From: a virus
Virus genome (UHGV): UHGV-0194287
Direction: 5' to 3' (one strand)
DNA length: 13,450 nucleotides
Of the stretch, positions 1,139 through 13,450 are shown piece by piece (within the stretch, counting starts at the first letter, position 1; the number at the start of each line of letters is the position of its first letter). Under the pieces are notes generated by a model that searched no databases, had not been told where the DNA came from, and saw only the letters and a program-made list of their open reading frames with translations. Made by a program: the position numbers and the translations under genes.

Positions 1139-1165
1139 ATAAAAAAGCCCGCATCAGCGGGCTTT
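1139..1165 (-). terminator. Rho-independent terminator (minus-strand sense)
   Basis: GC-rich hairpin AGCCCGC-ATCA-GCGGGCT (1147-1163) followed on the minus strand by a run of six U (plus-strand A 1141-1146). A 14-bp perfect palindrome GGAGTCGCGACTCC lies just beside it at 1176-1189. Confidence 0.5.
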
Positions 1166-1292: not shown

Positions 1293-1337
1293 TGGTGGGC
1301 TGGCGGGAGTTGAACCCGCGTCCGAAATTCCTACATA
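1293..1337 (-). repeat. About 45-nt copy of the ssrA (tmRNA) 3' end, a prophage attachment-site repeat (attL/attR type), not a complete tmRNA gene
   Basis: Minus strand reads ATGTAGGAATTTCGGACGCGGGTTCAACTCCCGCCAGCCCACCA, i.e. T-loop GGTTCAACTCC, acceptor 3' strand and CCA end of tmRNA. Sequence 5' of it (plus 1338 onward) is AT-rich and unrelated to tmRNA. Confidence 0.75.
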
Positions 1338-1450
1338 CCATTATTACTATAATAAAAACATATAATTATCAAATAAAACAAATGATTAGTCTTAATTTGT
1401 GTTTGGTCGTTTTAGGCGTTTTTAATGCTCTGCCGCCAAAGTGTCGCCAC

Positions 1451-2686
1451 TTACGTGTGCAGTGTATGTTCGATTTTTTGATGTTTGAATAACCGATCAA
1501 CCAATAATTCAAGTTTGTGAAAATCTGTAAGAGGATATAGCTTCACGATGTCTTCCTCAAAATTCGCTATACCTGATAATTTTTCTTTTTTTCGTAAGTA
1601 ATCGATGGCAATTCTTTGTTCATTCGATATCTCAAACTGATTTTGATAATCTAAGGTTTTAAGTACTTGCCAAGACATAGGGGCTGTAAATTCGAAGTAA
1701 GAAGCTAGTTTTGGACAAAAATCATATTGAATAGATTGCTTATAGGTTGCTTTAGGTGGTAATACAACATTAACAGAATATTTACTGCTCCTAGAATTCG
1801 GCATTTTTGTAGAGTAATATGCTATCCCCGCTATTGGTGATTTAACCCGACGACCGATCCACTGCATTAATAAATTTGGGATTATATATTCAGGTGTGAA
1901 TGATGAATTTTCTACGCGTTTTAAATAATTGCAAGCGATTAGTAATGGCCAGAATATCAAGTATGATGCTTTTGTTCTGTTTTCATCATATATTTTATTT
2001 TCATCAACAGTTTTTTTAATTGGAAGTGAAAGGTGAGGAGAAGCAAAATTTAAAATTGTTGAATTTACATCGTTTGTAACGAAGGATGATATATATAATT
2101 TATCAAAATCTGGCTTTCCCATCTCTTGCCAACATACGTACAAGGATGTACCGAGATATAAGCAGGGTTGGCCTGCGACTGAATATCTTTGAGCATTCAC
2201 TAAATGTCTTTTTGAAAACGGAATATGAAATATTTGGTTGTGCTCAATCAAAGGGGTTTCTGATTTTCTGACCCGATAAAGTGGCTTTTCCTTATTGCAA
2301 AAATCTTTTAGCAAGATACTAATTCGATTTAGTTGGGCTATTGTTGCCTCCTTTGACATAATGTCATCGAAAATGTCATATGCTTTTTTAATATCTCCAG
2401 ACAAAAACTCCTCTAGAGTTTTTTGTATGCACTTATGAATATTTGCAACTCGTCCTTTTAGAACTCTAAGTTCCCTACCGCATCCATTCATGTCTGCTTT
2501 TATTGATTCATCAATTAAAGTCATATAAATTTTACATCGATTAGAAAAATCACTGGCTATATCGCCTTTAATGTTGAATGGTGGATTTAATTCTTCATGG
2601 CTCAATAGTCGCTCAAGAAAGTGATCAATCCAGAGTGCATTTTTCTTTTCTGATTCTAATTGAGTACTGGATTTTTTTTCGTCCAT
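1451..2686 (-). CDS. RES-domain protein (411 aa), putative NAD+-targeting toxin/effector with N- and C-terminal extensions; prophage cargo gene
   Basis: Complete ORF; start 4 nt after the integrase stop. Motifs typical of the RES domain: LYRVRKSE, QRYSVAGQPCLYLGTSLYVCWQE (R...G.P.LYLG.S......E) and GIAYYSTKMPNSRSSKYSVNVVL (GI.Y.S....S...N.VL). Markedly AT-rich compared with neighbouring genes. Confidence 0.6.
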   Translation of the reverse strand: MDEKKSSTQLESEKKNALWIDHFLERLLSHEELNPPFNIKGDIASDFSNRCKIYMTLIDESIKADMNGCGRELRVLKGRVANIHKCIQKTLEEFLSGDIKKAYDIFDDIMSKEATIAQLNRISILLKDFCNKEKPLYRVRKSETPLIEHNQIFHIPFSKRHLVNAQRYSVAGQPCLYLGTSLYVCWQEMGKPDFDKLYISSFVTNDVNSTILNFASPHLSLPIKKTVDENKIYDENRTKASYLIFWPLLIACNYLKRVENSSFTPEYIIPNLLMQWIGRRVKSPIAGIAYYSTKMPNSRSSKYSVNVVLPPKATYKQSIQYDFCPKLASYFEFTAPMSWQVLKTLDYQNQFEISNEQRIAIDYLRKKEKLSGIANFEEDIVKLYPLTDFHKLELLVDRLFKHQKIEHTLHT

Positions 2687-2690
2687 GTTT

Positions 2691-3707
2691 TCACTCTATA
2701 TAGTTTAAAGGATTTTTAGTTACCGCATCCTCCAGATGATCTGGAGAAAAGTGCGCATAAATCATGGTCATTTTTATATCGGCATGGCCTAAAATTTCTT
2801 TAAGCACAAGTATGTTTCCTCCGTTCATCATAAAATGGCTGGCGAATGTATGACGTAATACATGGGTGCATTGACCCTCAGGAAGCTCAATATCGGCCCG
2901 CTTTACTGCACGCTCAAAGGCTTTTCTGCATGGTGAGAATAACTTCCCTCGATTTTTAGGAAGTTCGTTGTACAGATCCTGAGATATTGGCACGGTACGG
3001 TTTTTCTTGCCCTTCGTCTTGGTATAAGTGATGCGGTATTTGGATAATTGATGGCCCTGCAGATTTTCTGCTTCACTCCACCGTGCGCCAGTAGCTAGGC
3101 ATATTTTTGCAATCATTAGTAAGCTAGGGCTTTGAGATTCAGCACATGCCGCCAACAGGCGCTTGATTTCGTCCGTGGAAAGAAAAGCCAGCTCACCTTC
3201 GGCAATTTTGAAGGTCGGAAGTCCTGCCAGCGGGTTTGGTGCTGACCAGTGTCCTAGTTTTTTTAATGTACCGAACACCGATGATAGATTGCGCTGTTCA
3301 AGGTTTACCGTGCGGGGCTTAACGGGCGACATAAGCGTGCCATCTTCATTTCGTATTTCACCTTTTAACCGTGCTTCGCGGTATTTCGTAAAGTCTCCGG
3401 CTGTCAGTTCTGAGGCGATGGGGTCGCCTAGGCCATTACAGATAATTCTAAGTTTCGCCATGAGGCGCTTGGGGTCTGCGAGTGTCTGACCATACAGGGA
3501 ATACCAAAGCTCAATTAATTCTGATAGGCGTCGCCGATCATCCTTTTCACCCAACCACGGTTTTTTATTCACTTCTTCCATTGTGAAGCTTTCAAACGCA
3601 ATGGCTTCGCCTTTCGTGGCAAATTGCTTACGCACGCGCTTGCCATTGCGTCCATTGGGATAGCACTCGCACAACCATTTTCCGTTCGGCTGTTTTCTGA
3701 TGGTCAT
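2691..3707 (-). CDS. Phage integrase, tyrosine site-specific recombinase (338 aa)
   Basis: C-terminal catalytic region HVLRHTFASHFMMNGGNILVLKEILGHADIKMTMIYAHF (R, H-x-x-R and Y motifs). Start is 1 nt after the CI stop. Located next to the att repeat. Confidence 0.95.
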   Translation of the reverse strand: MTIRKQPNGKWLCECYPNGRNGKRVRKQFATKGEAIAFESFTMEEVNKKPWLGEKDDRRRLSELIELWYSLYGQTLADPKRLMAKLRIICNGLGDPIASELTAGDFTKYREARLKGEIRNEDGTLMSPVKPRTVNLEQRNLSSVFGTLKKLGHWSAPNPLAGLPTFKIAEGELAFLSTDEIKRLLAACAESQSPSLLMIAKICLATGARWSEAENLQGHQLSKYRITYTKTKGKKNRTVPISQDLYNELPKNRGKLFSPCRKAFERAVKRADIELPEGQCTHVLRHTFASHFMMNGGNILVLKEILGHADIKMTMIYAHFSPDHLEDAVTKNPLNYIE

Positions 3708-3708
3708 A

Positions 3709-4341
3709 TCAAAGGCTCTTAATGATTTTCAGTGCGCGGCCTACTACCTCAATGTCATCCAGACCGCACTCAAACGATGAATCATCCTGATGCACTACTA
3801 ATTTGTTTCCCGGGAGTCGTGTCAATTTAACAATGCTTTTTATCCCGTCGATGTCCACTAACCACATACCATTTACTGGTGGTGTTTGGTTGCGATCTAT
3901 TAAATAAGAATCACCAGAAGTAGTCACCAGCAGCAGGTTGCTTGAATCTGAGGGGAGTATGCTGCTATCAATGATTGCTTTTCCCGCATCGATCAATAAA
4001 CCACCGTTGAGAGTCGCCTTGTCAATTTCAGGAGATACTAGTTCAGAAAGAGGTACAACCTTGCTGGAGTTCACGGAATTGATATTTTTTTTAGGTTCAA
4101 TGTTTGGACCTGGCTCCCCCTGTCCGGTGGTTAGCCACAGTAAAGAAACTCCTGTTTCCAAGGCGCACTGAATCACCCACTCTGCAGGAAAACTATCTCT
4201 TAAGTATCTGTTTGCCATGGTGCTTTTTGATGCGCCTAAGTGATCGCAAAGTTGCTGTCTGGACTTGAAATCATAGGCTGCCATTAGTCTATGGATAGCC
4301 TCTCTTCCCCCTGTATTCTCTCCAACCTTTACCTGTATCAT
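3709..4341 (-). CDS. CI-like immunity repressor, N-terminal HTH plus C-terminal LexA/S24 peptidase-like domain (210 aa)
   Basis: N-terminal HTH-like region (QQLCDHLGASKSTMANRYL). C-terminal GDSYLID ... IVKLTRL ... IEVVGRALKII resembles the S24 Ser/Lys dyad region. Divergent from the rightward early operon, translationally coupled to int. Confidence 0.85.
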   Translation of the reverse strand: MIQVKVGENTGGREAIHRLMAAYDFKSRQQLCDHLGASKSTMANRYLRDSFPAEWVIQCALETGVSLLWLTTGQGEPGPNIEPKKNINSVNSSKVVPLSELVSPEIDKATLNGGLLIDAGKAIIDSSILPSDSSNLLLVTTSGDSYLIDRNQTPPVNGMWLVDIDGIKSIVKLTRLPGNKLVVHQDDSSFECGLDDIEVVGRALKIIKSL

Positions 4342-7964: not shown

Positions 7965-10336
7965 TGAACTACAGCTATTCCTGGAATGCTGAGAAAAAAG
8001 CAATCAATCCTTACGTAGAGACAGAAGAGCAATCTTCAGTTTCTGCGCTTTCAAACCTGATCACTCTGTACGCTGTCGATAACGAGCAGGAACAACTGCG
8101 TCGCGAGGCACTGAGTGATCAGGTCTGGGAGCGTTATTTCTTTAATGAATCCCGTGATCCTGTCCAACGCGAAATGGAGCAGGATAAGCTCATTAGTCGG
8201 GCAAAGCTGGCGCATGAGCAGCAGCGTTTTAATCCGGATATGGTCATTCTGGCGGACGTCAACGCCCAGCCTTCCCATATCAGCAAGCCGCTGATGCAAC
8301 GTATTGAATACTTCAGCAGCCTGGGCAGGCCAAAGGCTTATTCCCGCTATTTGCGTGAGACGATTAAGCCATGTCTGGAACGGCTGGAGCATGTACGCGA
8401 CAGTCAGCTATCCACTTCTTTTCGCTTTATTGCGAGCCATGAAGGGCTGGACGGCCTGCTGATCCTGCCTGAAATGAGTCAGGATCAGGTGAAACGCCTG
8501 TCCACCCTGGTAGCTGCGCATATGAGCATGTGCCTTGATGCCGCTTGTGGTGATTTGTACGCCACCGATGATGTTAAGCCAGAAGAAATCCGCAAGACAT
8601 GGGAAAAGGTGGCAGCGGAAACCCTGCGTCTGGATGTCATCCCGCCTGCGTTTGAGCAACTCCGCCGGAAAAGAAACCGCCGTAAACCCGTGCCCTATGA
8701 ACTCATTCCGGGTTCGCTGGCGCGTATGTTGTGCGCTGACTGGTGGTACCGGAAATTATGGAAGATGCGTTGCGAATGGCGGGAAGAGCAGTTGCGTGCT
8801 GTCTGCCTTGTCAGCAAAAAAGCATCTCCCTATGTCAGCTATGAAGCCGTGATGCATAAACGTGAGCAGCGCCGTAAGTCGCTGGAGTTTTTCCGTTCTC
8901 ATGAACTGGTGAACGAAGACGGCGACACGCTGGACATGGAGGATGTGGTAAACGCCAGCAGCAGCAACCCTGCGCATCGCCGCAATGAGATGATGGCCTG
9001 TGTTAAAGGTCTGGAGCTTATCGCGGAAATGCGTGGCGACTGCGCCGTTTTCTACACCATCACCTGTCCGTCACGTTTCCATTCCACGCTAAATAACGGC
9101 AGGCCCAACCCGACCTGGACAAATGCGACGGTAAGACAAAGCAGTGATTATCTGGTCGGCATGTTTGCTGCATTTCGTAAGGCGATGCACAAAGCCGGAT
9201 TGCGCTGGTATGGCGTGCGGGTGGCTGAGCCGCATCATGACGGCACAGTTCACTGGCACCTGTTGTGTTTTATGCGCAAAAAAGACCGCCGCGCCATTAC
9301 TGCTTTGTTGCGTAAGTTTGCCATTCGTGAAGACTGCGAGGAGCTGGGTAATAACACGGGGCCACGCTTTAAGTCTGAGCTGATAAACCCGCGCAAAGGA
9401 ACGCCGACAAGCTACATCGCGAAATATATCAGCAAGAACATTGACGGGCGTGGTCTGGCTGGCGAGATCAGCAAGGAAACGGGTAAATCTCTGCGTGATA
9501 ACGCTGAATACGTGAATGCCTGGGCGTCTTTGCATCGTGTTCAGCAATTCCGCTTCTTTGGTATTCCGGGACGTCAGGCTTACCGTGAACTTCGCTTGCT
9601 GGCTGGTCAGGCGGCAAGGCAACAGGGTGACAAAAAAGCAGGTGCGCCGGTACTGGATAACCCGCGTCTTGATGCCATTCTGGCTGCTGCTGATGCTGGT
9701 TGTTTTGCCACCTACATCATGAAGCAGGGCGGCGTACTGGTTCCCCGTAAATATCACCTCATCAGAACCGCTTATGAAATCAACGAAGAGCCGACCGCCT
9801 ATGGCGATCACGGTATTCGTATTTATGGCATCTGGTCACCCATTGCAGAGGGCAAGATCTGCACTCATGCAGTGAAGTGGAAAATGGTTCGTAAAGCCGT
9901 TGACGTTCAGGAGGCGGCAGCCGACCAGGGCGCTTGCGCCCCTTGGACTCGTGGCAATAACTGTCCCTTTGCTGAAAATTTGAACCAACAGGAGAAAGAT
10001 AAATCAGCTGATGGGGACCCCAGAACGGACATTACCAGCATGGATGACAAGGAGTTGCACGATTACCTGCACAGTATGAGCAAAAAAGAGCGCCGGGAAC
10101 TGGCAGCAAGGTTACGCCTGGTGAAACCGAAACGGCGTAAAGACTACAAACAGCGAATTACAGACCATCAGCGACTGCAGCTCGTGTATGAGCTGAAGTC
10201 CAGAGGATTTGATGGCAGCGAGAAAGAGGTCGATTTACTCCTTCGCGGAGGCAGTATTCCGTCAGGAGCAGGCCTGCGTATCTTCTATCGGAACCAGCGT
10301 TTGCAGGAAGATGATCAGTGGCGGAACCTGTATTAA
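7964..10336 (+). CDS. Rolling-circle replication initiator endonuclease, P2 gpA family (790 aa)
   Basis: HUH motif in [10 protein letters not shown] (~9244-9270) and paired active-site tyrosines YIAKYISK (~9411-9434), as in P2 gpA and phiX174 A. Size close to P2 gpA. Confidence 0.9.
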
Positions 10337-10428
10337 TTACGCGGGTTAACAATTCGTGCTCTTAATAATACCAGGCATATCAGGCTGATGAACGTAAAAA
10401 AACGTTTTACATCAGTAAGATTATTATA

Positions 10429-10448
10429 TACTGTAAATATAAACAGTG
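10429..10448 (+). promoter_or_regulatory. LexA (SOS) box
   Basis: TACTGTAAATATAAACAGTG is an exact CTGT-N8-ACAG with AT-rich spacer, inside the promoter region about 40 nt upstream of the RBS of the next ORF. Confidence 0.7.
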
Positions 10449-10489
10449 GTTATACATACAGTATTGCGTGTGGTGTCATAGGAGGAAAG

Positions 10490-10678
10490 ATGCAGGACTA
10501 TTTTTTGGAGTCTTTGAAGCTCCAGCGCATTGATTTTTTTCTTAAGCTTGTAGCGGCTAGTGAGTGTAGTGATGAAGAGAAGGGGCTGGCTCTGCAGTGG
10601 GTTTCTGAATTGACTGATGAACTCATGGCAAAAATCAGAACCCACGAATACAACCGCTCAATGGATGTCATCAGCTGA
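10490..10678 (+). CDS. Small SOS-regulated protein (62 aa), candidate Tum-like antirepressor component
   Basis: ATG 10490 preceded by TAGGAGG; immediately downstream of the LexA box; its stop is embedded in the RBS of the DinI-like gene. The track ORF from 10388 would include the promoter, so the internal start is preferred. Confidence 0.5.
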   Translation: MQDYFLESLKLQRIDFFLKLVAASECSDEEKGLALQWVSELTDELMAKIRTHEYNRSMDVIS

Positions 10679-10688
10679 GGTGACTTTT

Positions 10689-10922
10689 ATGCGCATTGAA
10701 ATAATGATCGATAAAGAGCAGAAGATTAGCCAGTCTACCCTAGACGCCCTTGAATCCGAGCTTTACCGCAATCTGCGCCCCCTGTATCCCAAAACGGTAA
10801 TTCGCATTCGCAAAGGTAGCTCTAACGGTGTGGAACTAACCGGACTGCAACTGGACGAAGAAAGAAAACAAGTGATGAAAATTATGCAGAAGGTGTGGGA
10901 AGACGACAGCTGGCTGCATTAA
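10689..10922 (+). CDS. DinI-family protein (77 aa)
   Basis: MRIEIMIDK...LDALESEL...ERKQVMKIMQKVWEDDSW parallels E. coli DinI (MRIEVTIAK...IDALAGEL...DKQRISEILQETWESADDW). GAGGTG RBS; start chosen at the internal ATG of the track ORF. Confidence 0.8.
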   Translation: MRIEIMIDKEQKISQSTLDALESELYRNLRPLYPKTVIRIRKGSSNGVELTGLQLDEERKQVMKIMQKVWEDDSWLH

Positions 10923-11055
10923 GAAACGTTGCTGGCGTCTGAACTTGCTTCTGGCGTCAGCAAGGTTGAACAACGAGCCCTTGCGAGGCGTTAGCTCTGT
11001 AGTGCATGTCTATGCCGCATGAGATCGCATGATCGTTTGAGGATCGTTTTTGCTA

Positions 11056-11082
11056 AGGCCCGCCAGAACTGGCGGGCTTTTG
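11056..11082 (+). terminator. Rho-independent terminator of the SOS operon
   Basis: GCCCGCC-AGAACT-GGCGGGC hairpin followed by TTTTG. Confidence 0.6.
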
Positions 11083-11126
11083 CGTAGATCATGCAGGTGC
11101 ATGAAAACCACTACATAAAGCGGGCA

Positions 11127-11145
11127 GGCGTGGCGGGGATACGAG
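11127..11145. other. cos-like sequence (candidate P2/186-type cohesive end site)
   Basis: GGCGTGGCGGGGATACGAG: the first 13 nt match the cohesive-end sequence of phage 186 as I remember it (GGCGTGGCGGGGAAAGCAT); the last 6 diverge. Lies between the replication/SOS module and the portal remnant, as expected for cos. Confidence 0.35.
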
Positions 11146-11158
11146 CGCGCGCTCATGG

Positions 11159-11187
11159 TTGAATTAATGAAATTATGGTGTTAAATA
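11159..11187 (+). promoter_or_regulatory. Candidate sigma70 promoter for the cargo gene
   Basis: TTGAAT, 17-nt spacer, TAAATA, about 70 nt upstream of a strong RBS (AGGGAGGAG) and the ATG at 11256. Confidence 0.35.
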
Positions 11188-11255
11188 GGCTAGCTTTTTA
11201 AGTCGTGAATATTCAATTTTTCAACTCATTTTTTTCATAGGGAGGAGTAATTGAC

Positions 11256-11954
11256 ATGGTTATGTTAGTGGATGACTGTCCACGATGTGGATCACAAAAA
11301 ATAGCGTTTGATGTTAATGGGCTGAATTGCACTAGGGTTTACAATGCATTGGGCGGGGGTAAAACATACGAGTACGAGGTCTATTGTGTTTGCCGAGAGT
11401 GTCATAAAACGACAATGTTTCTTTGCAGACCTTTAACGAAAAATAAAAATTTAGATGGCTATAATTGGGAAAGTGGAATATTCGGCTTAAAGGAAGTTGC
11501 AGAGGTTGTTAGGCCTATATCACCGGCAGACTTAGCAGTAGAGGAGCCACCAGAGTTCTTACCTGAGCATATCAATAGTGCATATGAGGAAGGGGCGAAA
11601 TGTTTGGCTATAGGTTGTTATAATGCAGCAGCAACCATGTTTAGGCTTTGCCTTGATTATGCCACAAAAGGACTTCTTCCTGATGGGGAGCAAGGGCCTG
11701 CGCAAAAAATAAGGAGAAGCCTAGGGTTAAGAATGGAGTGGTTATTTGATAATCATCTACTGCCTGAAGCTTTAAGGGAACTAGCTGAATGCGTTAAAGA
11801 TGACGGAAATGATGGAGCGCATGAAGGTATTTTGGATAAAGCTGCTGCTGAGGATCTTGAAGATTTTACCTATCTTTTTTTAGAACGGCTTTACACTGAA
11901 CCTCAACGCCTTATCGAAGCCAAGACAAGGCGTGAACAAAGAAGAAACAAATAA
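11256..11954 (+). CDS. Zinc-ribbon + DUF4145 (HEPN-like) protein (232 aa); candidate single-gene defence cargo
   Basis: N-terminal CPRCG...CVCRECH zinc ribbon. C-terminal region with AATMFRLCLDYA ... VKDDGNDGAHEG ... FLERLY fits the DUF4145 pattern (GN..AH core). Strong RBS; lower GC than the flanking phage genes. Confidence 0.6.
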   Translation: MVMLVDDCPRCGSQKIAFDVNGLNCTRVYNALGGGKTYEYEVYCVCRECHKTTMFLCRPLTKNKNLDGYNWESGIFGLKEVAEVVRPISPADLAVEEPPEFLPEHINSAYEEGAKCLAIGCYNAAATMFRLCLDYATKGLLPDGEQGPAQKIRRSLGLRMEWLFDNHLLPEALRELAECVKDDGNDGAHEGILDKAAAEDLEDFTYLFLERLYTEPQRLIEAKTRREQRRNK

Positions 11955-11962
11955 GTTCGGAA

Positions 11963-12600
11963 TTATTCTTCTGAAAGAATATAGGGCGTAAATTTAATCA
12001 CTTCTTCGCCCAGCCAGTCGTTCAGCTCTTGTAGCCTTTTTTGCAAGGGCGTTAATTCATTACGTACAAATACGCGACTGGCCTTCTCCACATCCCCAAA
12101 CCCTCCAACATTATTAGGCATAATCCCCATCATTTGCGGCGGCACGCGGTGCGCAGCCATCATGTCGTCGCGGCTGACATTTTTGATATTCAAAAACTCA
12201 TCCTTCGCCGCGACTTCTGACAATGGGATGATCTGAAGCCCGTCTTTTTTGCCGTTAGGCGAGTACATAAACAGGTTGCGGAAGTTGCCTGGACCTTTGG
12301 CGCTTTTCATCGCATTGCGGAGGTTGTTCACATCCTCCTGGTTTTGCGCGGCATCGGTCATGTACATGATAAAGCCCGCATGACTGCCGTTAATGTAATA
12401 CTTGCGACGGAACAGCGTGGCGGACTCGTTGAGCAGGGCTGACGGAATGGCAGAAAGATAACCGGGCAGGCCGTAGATCTCCTGATTAATATCCGGTTCC
12501 ATCAGATGAAAAATGCTGCCTTTCGTGAACTGATACGGCTGGGTTGTCATACCGTATTGCACAAACCAGTAGGTAACGGTTTTACGACCAGTATTGAACT
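11963..12600 (-). pseudogene. Truncated portal (gpQ-like) remnant, C-terminal ~200 aa only; N-terminal boundary approximate
   Basis: Minus-strand ORF, convergent with the cargo gene, in the position and orientation of P2 Q next to cos. Its first ~50-60 codons run through the ogr promoter and start region and look non-coding. A P2 portal is about 340 aa and no terminase or capsid genes follow. Confidence 0.45.
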
Positions 12601-12702
12601 TGAAGTGAAAATTGGTGATCTTGAAATGGAATAAATGGTTCTCAATATTGATATTTTGTGTATCATTGCAATGATTCTGATAGCAAAGGTAGGGATCTGG
12701 AT

Positions 12703-12921
12703 ATGATGAATTGTCCAAAGTGTGGTCATGCGGCGCACACAAGGAGCAGTTTTCAAGTAACAGAAAGCACCAAAGAGCGTTACTGCCAGTGCCAAAATAT
12801 TAACTGCGGGAGCACTTTTGTTACCCATGAAACAGTGGTCCGGTTTATTGTGACACCTGCAGTGATTGCCACAGCCCCTCCACATCCATTGCCAGGTGGT
12901 CAGGGCCATATGAATTTTTAA
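12703..12921 (+). CDS. ogr: Ogr/Delta-family zinc-finger late-gene transcription activator (72 aa)
   Basis: MMNCPKCGHAAHTRSSFQVTESTKERYCQCQNINCGSTF parallels P2 Ogr (CPLCQHAAHARTS...TKERYHQCQNVNCSATF); identical length to P2 Ogr; AGGGA RBS. The track ORF starts 45 nt upstream; the internal ATG is preferred. Confidence 0.85.
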   Translation: MMNCPKCGHAAHTRSSFQVTESTKERYCQCQNINCGSTFVTHETVVRFIVTPAVIATAPPHPLPGGQGHMNF

Positions 12922-12928
12922 GAAAGAG

Positions 12929-12951
12929 AACCTGCTACGGCAGGTTTTTAT
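12929..12951. terminator. Bidirectional rho-independent terminator between ogr and the convergent gene
   Basis: AACCTGC-TACG-GCAGGTT hairpin followed by TTTTTATT on the plus strand and a T-rich tract on the minus strand. Confidence 0.55.
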
Positions 12952-13430
12952 TCATCTGGGATCTCACCCGTTTCAAGAAAATGTATAAAGCCAGGCTCAT
13001 CTATGATGATAGTGCCTTTCATCCTGGCTGCCGATACTTTTGATGGGCCTGCATTGTAACCGCAACAGAGCATCTGAAGGTTTTGGGTTACAGATGTTCT
13101 TACCGTTAATCCTTGTTCATTCGCCTTATCAACCAACCTTTCTTTATCTGCTTTCTTAAATCCGGTGAAACACACATCGAATGTATTTTTTTTCGGACCT
13201 GACTGCTTAGTGAGATGTGAGTAGTTTTCGGGGAGGAATGACGCGCATTCCTGAATGGCTTGTTCTTGTGAATCGTATTGTTTAAGAATGCGGTCTTTTC
13301 GGAAGGTTTTTATTCGATCGGTGTTCTTACAAATGCCCTGTATGTGATTTTCGCTATAACTGATGCTCTGTATTGAGTGAACACCGATACGACCATTTGC
13401 ATTGATGTAAACAAAGTGAAGTTCTTCCAT
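12948..13430 (-). CDS. Small WYL-like + BRCT-like two-domain protein (160 aa)
   Basis: N-terminus LHFVYINANGRIGVHSIQ...DRIKTFRKDRI resembles the WYL-domain core (Y...R...P... R.FR.DRI). C-terminus FDVCFTGF...RTSVTQNLQMLCCGYNAGPSKVSAARMKGTIIIDEPGF follows the BRCT pattern of NAD-ligase type (F.x.TG......SVSKKT..LV.G...GSK..KA...GI.II.E..F). Confidence 0.6.
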   Translation of the reverse strand: MEELHFVYINANGRIGVHSIQSISYSENHIQGICKNTDRIKTFRKDRILKQYDSQEQAIQECASFLPENYSHLTKQSGPKKNTFDVCFTGFKKADKERLVDKANEQGLTVRTSVTQNLQMLCCGYNAGPSKVSAARMKGTIIIDEPGFIHFLETGEIPDE

Positions 13431-13450
13431 GTCAAACCTCTTTGCATGAT

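Follow-up and report, generated by a model that had tools for sequence, protein, structure and literature searches.

A YopC-like stand-alone RES-family protein, a candidate NAD+-cleaving antiphage effector, carried between int and att in a Fels-2/186-like prophage of Escherichia coli

Introduction

What might a large RES-family protein do when its gene follows the repressor and integrase genes of a prophage and no antitoxin is found beside it? This question is raised by the virus genome UHGV-0194287, a stretch of 13,450 nucleotides (nt) that we refer to as the window, in which an open reading frame (ORF) of 411 amino acids (aa) lies between the attachment site (att) and the integrase gene int, itself preceded by the repressor gene cI. 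Toxins of the RES-Xre type invariably come with an Xre-family antitoxin, which plugs their active site. A different type of RES protein, aRES, has recently been described by Osterman et al. (bioRxiv, January 2026): RES proteins that stand alone and carry PF18870 at the N terminus were shown to protect E. coli, and they convert NAD+ to nicotinamide and ADP-ribose-1''-phosphate (ADPR-1P) with no need for a partner (10.64898/2026.01.28.702374). An earlier note on the window, based on its letters, had proposed that the 411-aa protein is a defence effector expressed in the lysogen. Here, we followed up this proposal by computational analysis and found it moderately probable that the protein is a single-protein, autoinhibited NAD+-depleting antiphage effector, carried as cargo and transcribed with the lysogenic operon.

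Results

Fold and catalytic residues of the 411-aa protein

The check suggested in the earlier note, a search with the Pfam RES profile, did not succeed, as the protein scored 13.6 bits (E 0.068) against a gathering score of 23.2. The RES assignment was borne out by structure and profile-profile comparison instead. An AlphaFold2 model built from 40 homologues (predicted local distance difference test 87.8, predicted template modelling score 0.89) showed the three-dimensional RES fold, and the nearest structural match was the NAD+ phosphorylase MbcT. The alignment of the family profile with the aRES profile by hhalign had a probability of 89.4% (E 2e-6, 254 columns), and the match entered both N-terminal regions, with family positions 41-130 facing aRES positions 44-170. 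In agreement, YopC of the Bacillus phage SPbeta, a homologue with 32% identity over residues 79-344 (E 6e-42) that reaches part of the N-terminal domain, itself scored 22.4 bits on Pfam RES; sub-threshold RES matches were obtained for 15 of the 32 close homologues; and 22 of 58 distant relatives matched the profile at E ≤ 0.01, no other family recurring among them. The RES reading is thus supported by the YopC homology, the Pfam matches of distant relatives and the aRES profile match. HMMER profiles of the family (A1 and A3) retrieved from the PDB chains only designed helical bundles, which matched the N-terminal helices, and no RES toxin; a Foldseek search of the BFVD viral structures gave nothing significant. 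In PHROGs, the protein falls in family 7835, whose function is not annotated.

Next to the catalytic domain, the model contained helical additions on both sides. The earlier note had put these at about 130 N-terminal and 80 C-terminal residues; the extensions are present and slightly shorter than that, with helices at 2-121 and 355-399. The N-terminal domain was the least conserved part of the protein, with a column identity of 0.23-0.62. In the C-terminal extension, the motif LYPLTDFxKLE was conserved, and F389 was invariant in the 58 distant members.

The catalytic set expected from the RES reading was complete. R138, R140, R167, Y177, E188, and S292 were invariant in 40 close sequences, and N306 was likewise invariant in the close family; among the 58 distant members, R167, Y177, and E188 were invariant and the other catalytic residues at least 90% conserved. 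In the profile-profile alignment, the first six stood opposite R182, R184, R215, Y225, E236, and S334 of aRES, and these are exactly the residues mutated in Table S4 of the aRES study (10.64898/2026.01.28.702374), where defence was lost upon point mutation of residues in the predicted active site. The assignment of N306 was based on conservation and on its alignment with aRES N349. Moreover, R27, R47, Y58, E69, and S126 of MbcT, the first three being essential (PMC6436930), were matched in order, and the spacing was matched for R47-Y58-E69. Since the set is conserved and aligned with both aRES and MbcT, the 411-aa protein is predicted, from sequence and model, to be a catalytically competent RES-fold enzyme.

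No antitoxin at the locus or among its relatives

The earlier note had seen no Xre-type partner, and we found none at the locus and none recurring elsewhere. Between the end of the ORF and the att core there are 114 nt, int lies directly upstream, and no antitoxin-sized ORF is found in between. When the neighbours at 79 genome loci were clustered, no small helix-turn-helix (HTH) family recurred; the only recurring neighbours were the P2-type Int and CI in enterobacteria, and a GHKL-ATPase with a 220-aa protein in Bacteroidota. An exception of sorts was SPbeta (locus L085, 3279-4942), where yopC follows yopB, a 75-aa Cro/C1-type HTH gene, both being uncharacterised. A phmmer search of the 79 loci with YopB gave a sole, weak match (E 0.001), an opposite-strand ORF of 93 aa.

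Coupling to the cI-int operon

The spacing reported earlier was confirmed, with 4 nt between the int stop codon and the ATG of the 411-aa ORF, and 1 nt between the cI stop codon and the int ATG. The Int of the window is 91% identical to that of Fels-2. The claim of AT-richness was equally accurate: the GC content of the ORF was 33.3% (26.9% at third codon positions), against 46.4% for int, 44.4% for cI, and 47.5% for the remaining prophage. The order cI-int-RES was constant in all 78 IMG/VR loci, and the tight coupling was kept in 76 of them, with an int-RES junction of -17 to +23 nt; the two exceptions had a gene for a 352-aa membrane protein between int and RES, tightly coupled too. One lineage had the order cI-RES-int: in Klebsiella sp. 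R390 (L093, 4275-7132), a more distant P2-like prophage whose CI and Int are 42% and 53% identical, the RES-family gene lies between cI and int, within the operon, so that co-transcription is hard to avoid there.

No terminator-like site was found from cI to the end of the RES gene, except for a weak 5-bp stem within the ORF, and the first such site downstream was the host ssrA terminator. The numbers of sites in the promoter and terminator scans were not above those of shuffled controls, and so only the ssrA terminator was noted, the scans not being taken otherwise as evidence. Phage Cartapus of strain LF82 carries at the same site a 44%-identical homologue annotated as 'putative RES protein', and in the RNA sequencing (RNA-seq) data of LF82 the int mRNA tracked cI across conditions at a 4-8-fold lower level. 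In phage 186, an int::lacZ fusion serves as a reporter of leftward transcription (PMC7708051). From the short gaps, the conserved junction, the order in R390, and the behaviour of int in LF82, we infer that the RES gene is transcribed together with cI and int in the lysogen.

An exchangeable cargo gene in the int-att slot

The proposal that the gene is AT-rich cargo placed between int and att was borne out by the GC data and by the variable contents of this slot. The slot is limited by the conserved att arm and the 3' end of int, and homology in the arm stops at about position 1450, exactly at the end of the 411-aa ORF, where the cargo starts. Among 80 loci with an Int at least 88% identical, the slot held a RES gene in 23, a membrane protein in 19, a 506/516-aa protein in 8, and other cargo in 4, and was empty in 11; two further loci carried the 506/516-aa protein plus the membrane protein. 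In Fels-2 the slot is empty, and the att arm adjoins int directly, 118 nt away. The RES gene was absent from near-identical phages such as Fels-2 and SEN8, and this absence makes an integrase-linked function in the phage life cycle unlikely. Across loci, Int remained 90-96% identical while the RES protein dropped to 42%, and CI alleles ranged from 52 to 100%. We take the divergence of RES beside a stable Int as a signature of cargo in an arms race. The gene is, therefore, exchangeable cargo of the int-att slot in ssrA-integrating Fels-2/186-like prophages.

The other occupants of the slot were also inspected. At L018 (3418-4476), L019 (4813-5871), and L089 (3834-4961), a protein of 352-375 aa, bearing transmembrane helices at its N terminus, was encoded between int and RES, so that two cargo genes were stacked. 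This protein had no Pfam match and only a weak one in PADLOC (PtuA-like AAA ATPase, E 0.013), and it may be another exclusion or defence gene. The 506/516-aa protein was the alternative cargo in Klebsiella phages (L086, 1660-3210; L087, 133-1653), its gene overlapping or nearly abutting int; it gave no Pfam match, and in PADLOC there was none for the 516-aa form and a weak TIR-effector match (E 0.042) for the 506-aa form.

Family size, selection and defence context

The protein has about 330 close homologues, found in Enterobacterales and nearly all labelled 'hypothetical protein'. A profile search of 1.84 billion representatives returned 2692 clusters at E ≤ 1e-3 and 975 at E ≤ 1e-30, mostly of 360-400 aa and usually with the N-terminal domain within the match; the genome loci spanned Enterobacterales, Aeromonas, Bacteroidota, Acidobacteriota, Paenibacillus/Bacillus, Planctomycetota, and others. 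A family of such depth and conservation is unlikely to be an annotation artefact. The allele of the window itself was present in one of 5426 complete E. coli genomes (strain H2, where it lies inside a different deleted prophage), and about 42 genomes had a relative at the DNA level. Compared with the homologues, the ORF is full-length with all catalytic residues intact. Synonymous sites were saturated even in the closest alleles, so that only the nonsynonymous distance (dN) was comparable, and this was 0.10-0.13 for RES against 0.048 for int in the closest pairs. Low dN with saturated synonymous sites indicates, at the sequence level, purifying selection.

For the distant relatives, the defence-island context expected of an effector was observed. 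In one Sulfurimonas genome, Mod and Res of a type III restriction-modification (R-M) system flank the RES-family gene, which is beside a DUF7380/DUF4209 protein; in Paenibacillus, the RES-family gene adjoins the gene for a PLD-helicase-DUF3427 protein or for a DUF2357/PD-(D/E)XK (McrC-like) protein. In the 611-aa protein P0150, a RES-family module (32-324) is fused to an LlaMI-type type II restriction endonuclease domain (372-607). Seven Bacteroidota loci (L108, L118, L124, L126, L138, L147, and L149) shared a three-gene operon with overlapping reading frames, coding for a GHKL-type ATPase (HATPase_c_3, ~506 aa), the 220-aa protein, and a 365-aa RES-family protein; this could be a multi-component system with the same effector.

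Borders and remaining features of the prophage

The window derives from the E. coli chromosome, as bases 1-1336 matched prophage-free strains at 99.8% identity. In those strains, the 3' end of ssrA comes next to glaH, and ssrA terminates at the position equivalent to 1336; the DNA rightward of 1337 belongs to a 186/Fels-2-like (Peduoviridae) prophage. The att core of the window is one A short (TGGTGG-GCTGG) relative to those of Cartapus, E. coli H2, and ST437-OXA245phi4.1. What is left of the prophage is a deletion remnant that has lost all its head, tail, and lysis genes. Homology to intact relatives (10300-13450) covers gene A, DinI, the DUF4145 protein, and a portal fragment (11963-12742), then jumps at about 12575 to the 3' end of gene D, followed by ogr (12658-12921) and the 160-aa ORF. 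In LF82, the Cartapus counterpart of this ORF, gp32, had an expression 15-fold above the prophage background; in the circular phage map, the 160-aa ORF is found immediately beyond attP and shares its strand with the RES gene. The features of the window are listed in Table 1.

Table 1. Features of the window, with positions, strand, and basis of assignment.
Feature	Position	Strand	Basis or remark
411-aa stand-alone RES-family protein (YopC-like), candidate NAD+-cleaving antiphage effector	1451-2686	-	
N-terminal five-helix domain, residues 1-122; proposed sensor/auto-inhibitor	2321-2686	-	Helices 2-29, 43-64, 70-95, 99-110, 113-121
RES (ART-like) catalytic domain, residues ~123-345, mixed alpha/beta	1652-2320	-	R138, R140, R167, Y177, E188, S292, N306
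C-terminal helical extension, residues 346-411	1454-1651	-	Helices 355-370, 376-386, 388-399
Tyrosine integrase of ssrA-integrating Fels-2/186-like phages	2691-3707	-	Int_N 1e-29, Phage_integrase 3e-24 (Pfam)
186-type CI immunity repressor, first gene of leftward lysogenic operon	3709-4341	-	Phage_CI_repr 5e-31, Phage_CI_C 7e-28 (Pfam)
Phage-derived att arm, left edge of cargo slot	1337-1450	.	Kept in Fels-2, Cartapus, E. coli H2, ST437-OXA245phi4.1
att core, displaced 3' end of ssrA (tmRNA gene), last 44 nt	1293-1336	-	Comparison with prophage-free E. coli
Host ssrA terminator hairpin	1144-1165	-	Terminator scan; first terminator-like site downstream of the RES gene
DUF4145-domain protein, 232 aa	11256-11954	+	Classical gpA-gpQ P2-like defence hotspot; low-GC stretch
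160-aa ORF	12948-13430	-	100% identical to Cartapus gp32 ('putative exonuclease'); weak BRCT match

Discussion

Each part of the earlier proposal that computation could address was supported, except that the Pfam RES search fell short of its threshold. The data suggest the following working model. Placed last in the cI-int lysogenic operon, the RES gene would be made during repression and, in a burst, when lysogeny is established, and its position implies that transcription would halt at the lytic switch. The N-terminal five-helix domain and the C-terminal extension may hold the enzyme inactive until an infecting phage provides a trigger; the enzyme would then cleave NAD+ by phosphorolysis to nicotinamide and ADPR-1P, or act as a plain NADase, and the resulting NAD+ depletion would leave the invader unable to replicate. 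The enzyme would thereby act alone, as an abortive-infection or growth-arrest defence of the lysogen.

Several observations weigh against this model. The Pfam RES match stays under the gathering score and spans only profile positions 2-50, the first third of the profile, and searches of NCBIfam and PADLOC v2 with the 411-aa protein gave no match. As for expression, the RNA-seq table of LF82, which lists cI and int, has no entry for the RES homologue of Cartapus; the level of int in LF82 is already 4-8-fold under that of cI; and a gene of 33% GC may be silenced by H-NS. The prophage is a deletion remnant, so the RES gene could be decaying, though the ORF is full-length. The role of the extensions as sensor or autoinhibitor is at this stage pure inference. 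Finally, not all RES enzymes degrade NAD+, as ParT ADP-ribosylates Prs.

The example of ParT opens an alternative in which the same fold performs another chemistry, the protein being an ADP-ribosyltransferase that acts on a host or phage protein or on nucleic acid, possibly still in defence or exclusion. We consider this rather unlikely, because the nearest structural match is MbcT, the nearest profile match is the ADPR-1P-making aRES, and the Y and N of the phosphorolytic RES clade (PMC9503650) have candidate counterparts in Y177 and N306. The gene might also serve the phage itself, as a counter-defence that consumes NAD+-derived immune signals or in the takeover of host metabolism at establishment or induction. 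It is phage-encoded, a burst of expression is expected from the CII-activated leftward promoter at infection, and enzymes acting on NAD+ and ADP-ribose are common among phage counter-defence tools (PMC9503650). This explanation is, nonetheless, improbable: the gene is missing from many near-identical phages, Fels-2 and SEN8 included, so that the life cycle can do without it; two prophage remnants that have undergone deletion and cannot be induced still carry an intact copy; its relatives occupy chromosomal R-M islands in non-phage DNA; and it stands on the lysogenic, not the lytic, transcription unit.

The absence of an antitoxin bears on a further explanation, that of an addiction or toxin-antitoxin (TA)-like module that stabilises the prophage, with the RES toxin neutralised by CI, Int, or an unrecognised small product. 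Classical RES toxins are indeed TA toxins, SPbeta yopC is preceded by the HTH gene yopB, and in these enterobacterial prophages the gene always accompanies an HTH repressor and Int. Against this, only lineage-specific neighbour families recur over the 79 loci from many phyla, the gene adjoins R-M and nuclease genes with no HTH partner, CI alleles (52-100% identity) vary independently of the RES alleles, and aRES shows that cells tolerate an extra-domain RES protein with no partner, so that we hold such a module to be very improbable. Least credible of all, in our estimation, is the idea that in this strain the gene is decaying or silent, a passenger without a present function. The loss of all structural genes from the prophage, the strong AT-richness of the gene, and the rarity of the allele, present in a single one of 5426 complete E. 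coli genomes, would fit such a passenger; the full-length ORF with intact catalytic residues, in comparison with ~330 homologues, and the purifying selection indicated by a dN of 0.10-0.13 in close pairs with saturated synonymous sites speak against it.

The antiphage effector model thus keeps our preference, and it has a broader and more tentative version, which we regard as possible and as yet doubtful: the YopC-like RES proteins might form a second large antiphage RES family (~2,700 clusters at 50% identity), missed by Pfam, NCBIfam, PADLOC v2, and the published aRES set, with an effector wired into the immunity switch. RES would in this case be coupled to int at translation, or even sit between cI and int, and its synthesis only while the repressor operon is on, ceasing at the prophage's own lytic switch, would amount to a built-in avoidance of self-targeting. 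The concept of stand-alone RES defence (aRES, January 2026) and the int-att hotspot are already published, and the idea is in this respect less new than first assumed; a literature search did not find the YopC-like family, its size, its dominance of the Fels-2 slot, or its fusion to the immunity operon. If the model is correct, a widespread family of 'hypothetical proteins' would join the NAD+-depleting immune repertoire, the RES fold would have been recruited at least twice for single-protein defence, with different regulatory domains, and RES alleles would be the most frequent cargo of the int-att hotspot in ssrA-integrating P2-like prophages. The family would also be a new target for the phage counter-measures known as aRad1 inhibitors and the NARP1-associated ADPR-1P phosphatase. 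Moreover, concrete mutants and the natural operon context would make it possible to study when, in relation to its own lytic cycle, a prophage deploys an abortive-infection effector.

Comparison with known systems places the protein apart from the RES-Xre toxins. MbcT/MbcA, NatT/NatR, Res/Xre of P. putida, and ParT/ParS contain toxins of 144-250 aa in the solved structures, whereas the protein studied here has 411 aa, with helical domains flanking the catalytic one, and its gene has no adjacent Xre gene and no other partner. The likeness to SPbeta YopC is closer, as both are homologous and prophage-encoded; YopC differs in its length of 442 aa and in not being encoded beside an integrase, and it is uncharacterised, our literature search having found no paper naming yopC.

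As regards its location, the gene resembles the cargo of P2-like defence hotspots (Rousset et al. 2022, PMC9122126; PMC13586616), being variable, AT-rich, and fixed in position between conserved phage genes. The P2-like int-att interval has been described as a minor defence hotspot holding 3% of P2 systems (NAR 2026, PMC13586616), and K139-like phages are known to have a hotspot between cI and int (PMC13586616, PMC9122126); RES proteins are not named as int-att cargo in these two studies. The classical P2 hotspot, gpA-gpQ, lies elsewhere in the window and holds the DUF4145 protein. As with lambda rexAB, the cargo would belong to the transcription unit of the repressor; unlike the single 411-aa protein, RexAB is a two-protein, membrane-depolarising system.

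The closest functional parallel is aRES, which likewise consists of one protein (300-600 aa) whose RES domain follows a helical N-terminal region, has no antitoxin, and is present in Enterobacteria, and all six of its functionally tested residues are conserved and aligned in the 411-aa protein. Our protein agrees with aRES in its length and in standing without a partner, yet it would be transcribed in one unit together with cI and int: its gene is tied to the operon of a prophage, whereas aRES genes are free in defence islands. The relatedness is remote, with no HMMER-level match in either direction. The aRES homologues all carry a precomputed PF08808 and mostly PF18870, the YopC-like family neither. 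The authors accept PF18870 (HEPN/RES NTD1) at an HHsearch probability >80% (10.64898/2026.01.28.702374); with hmmscan, we did not find it among the eight families detected in the 58 distant members, nor in the first 25 of the 32 close members listed, while the hhalign match of the two family profiles did enter both N-terminal regions. Furthermore, the four invariant cysteines of the aRES N-terminal zinc ribbon are absent from the YopC-like family, which has an additional C-terminal helical extension, and 12 IMG genomes with this family are absent from aRES Table S2, their presence in the authors' database being unchecked. Because the relatedness is remote, PF18870 gave no match in the members scanned, the zinc-ribbon cysteines are missing, and the 12 genomes are absent from the aRES table, we treat the YopC-like proteins, on sequence grounds, as a sister family of aRES that would share its working principle, and not as demonstrated members of it.

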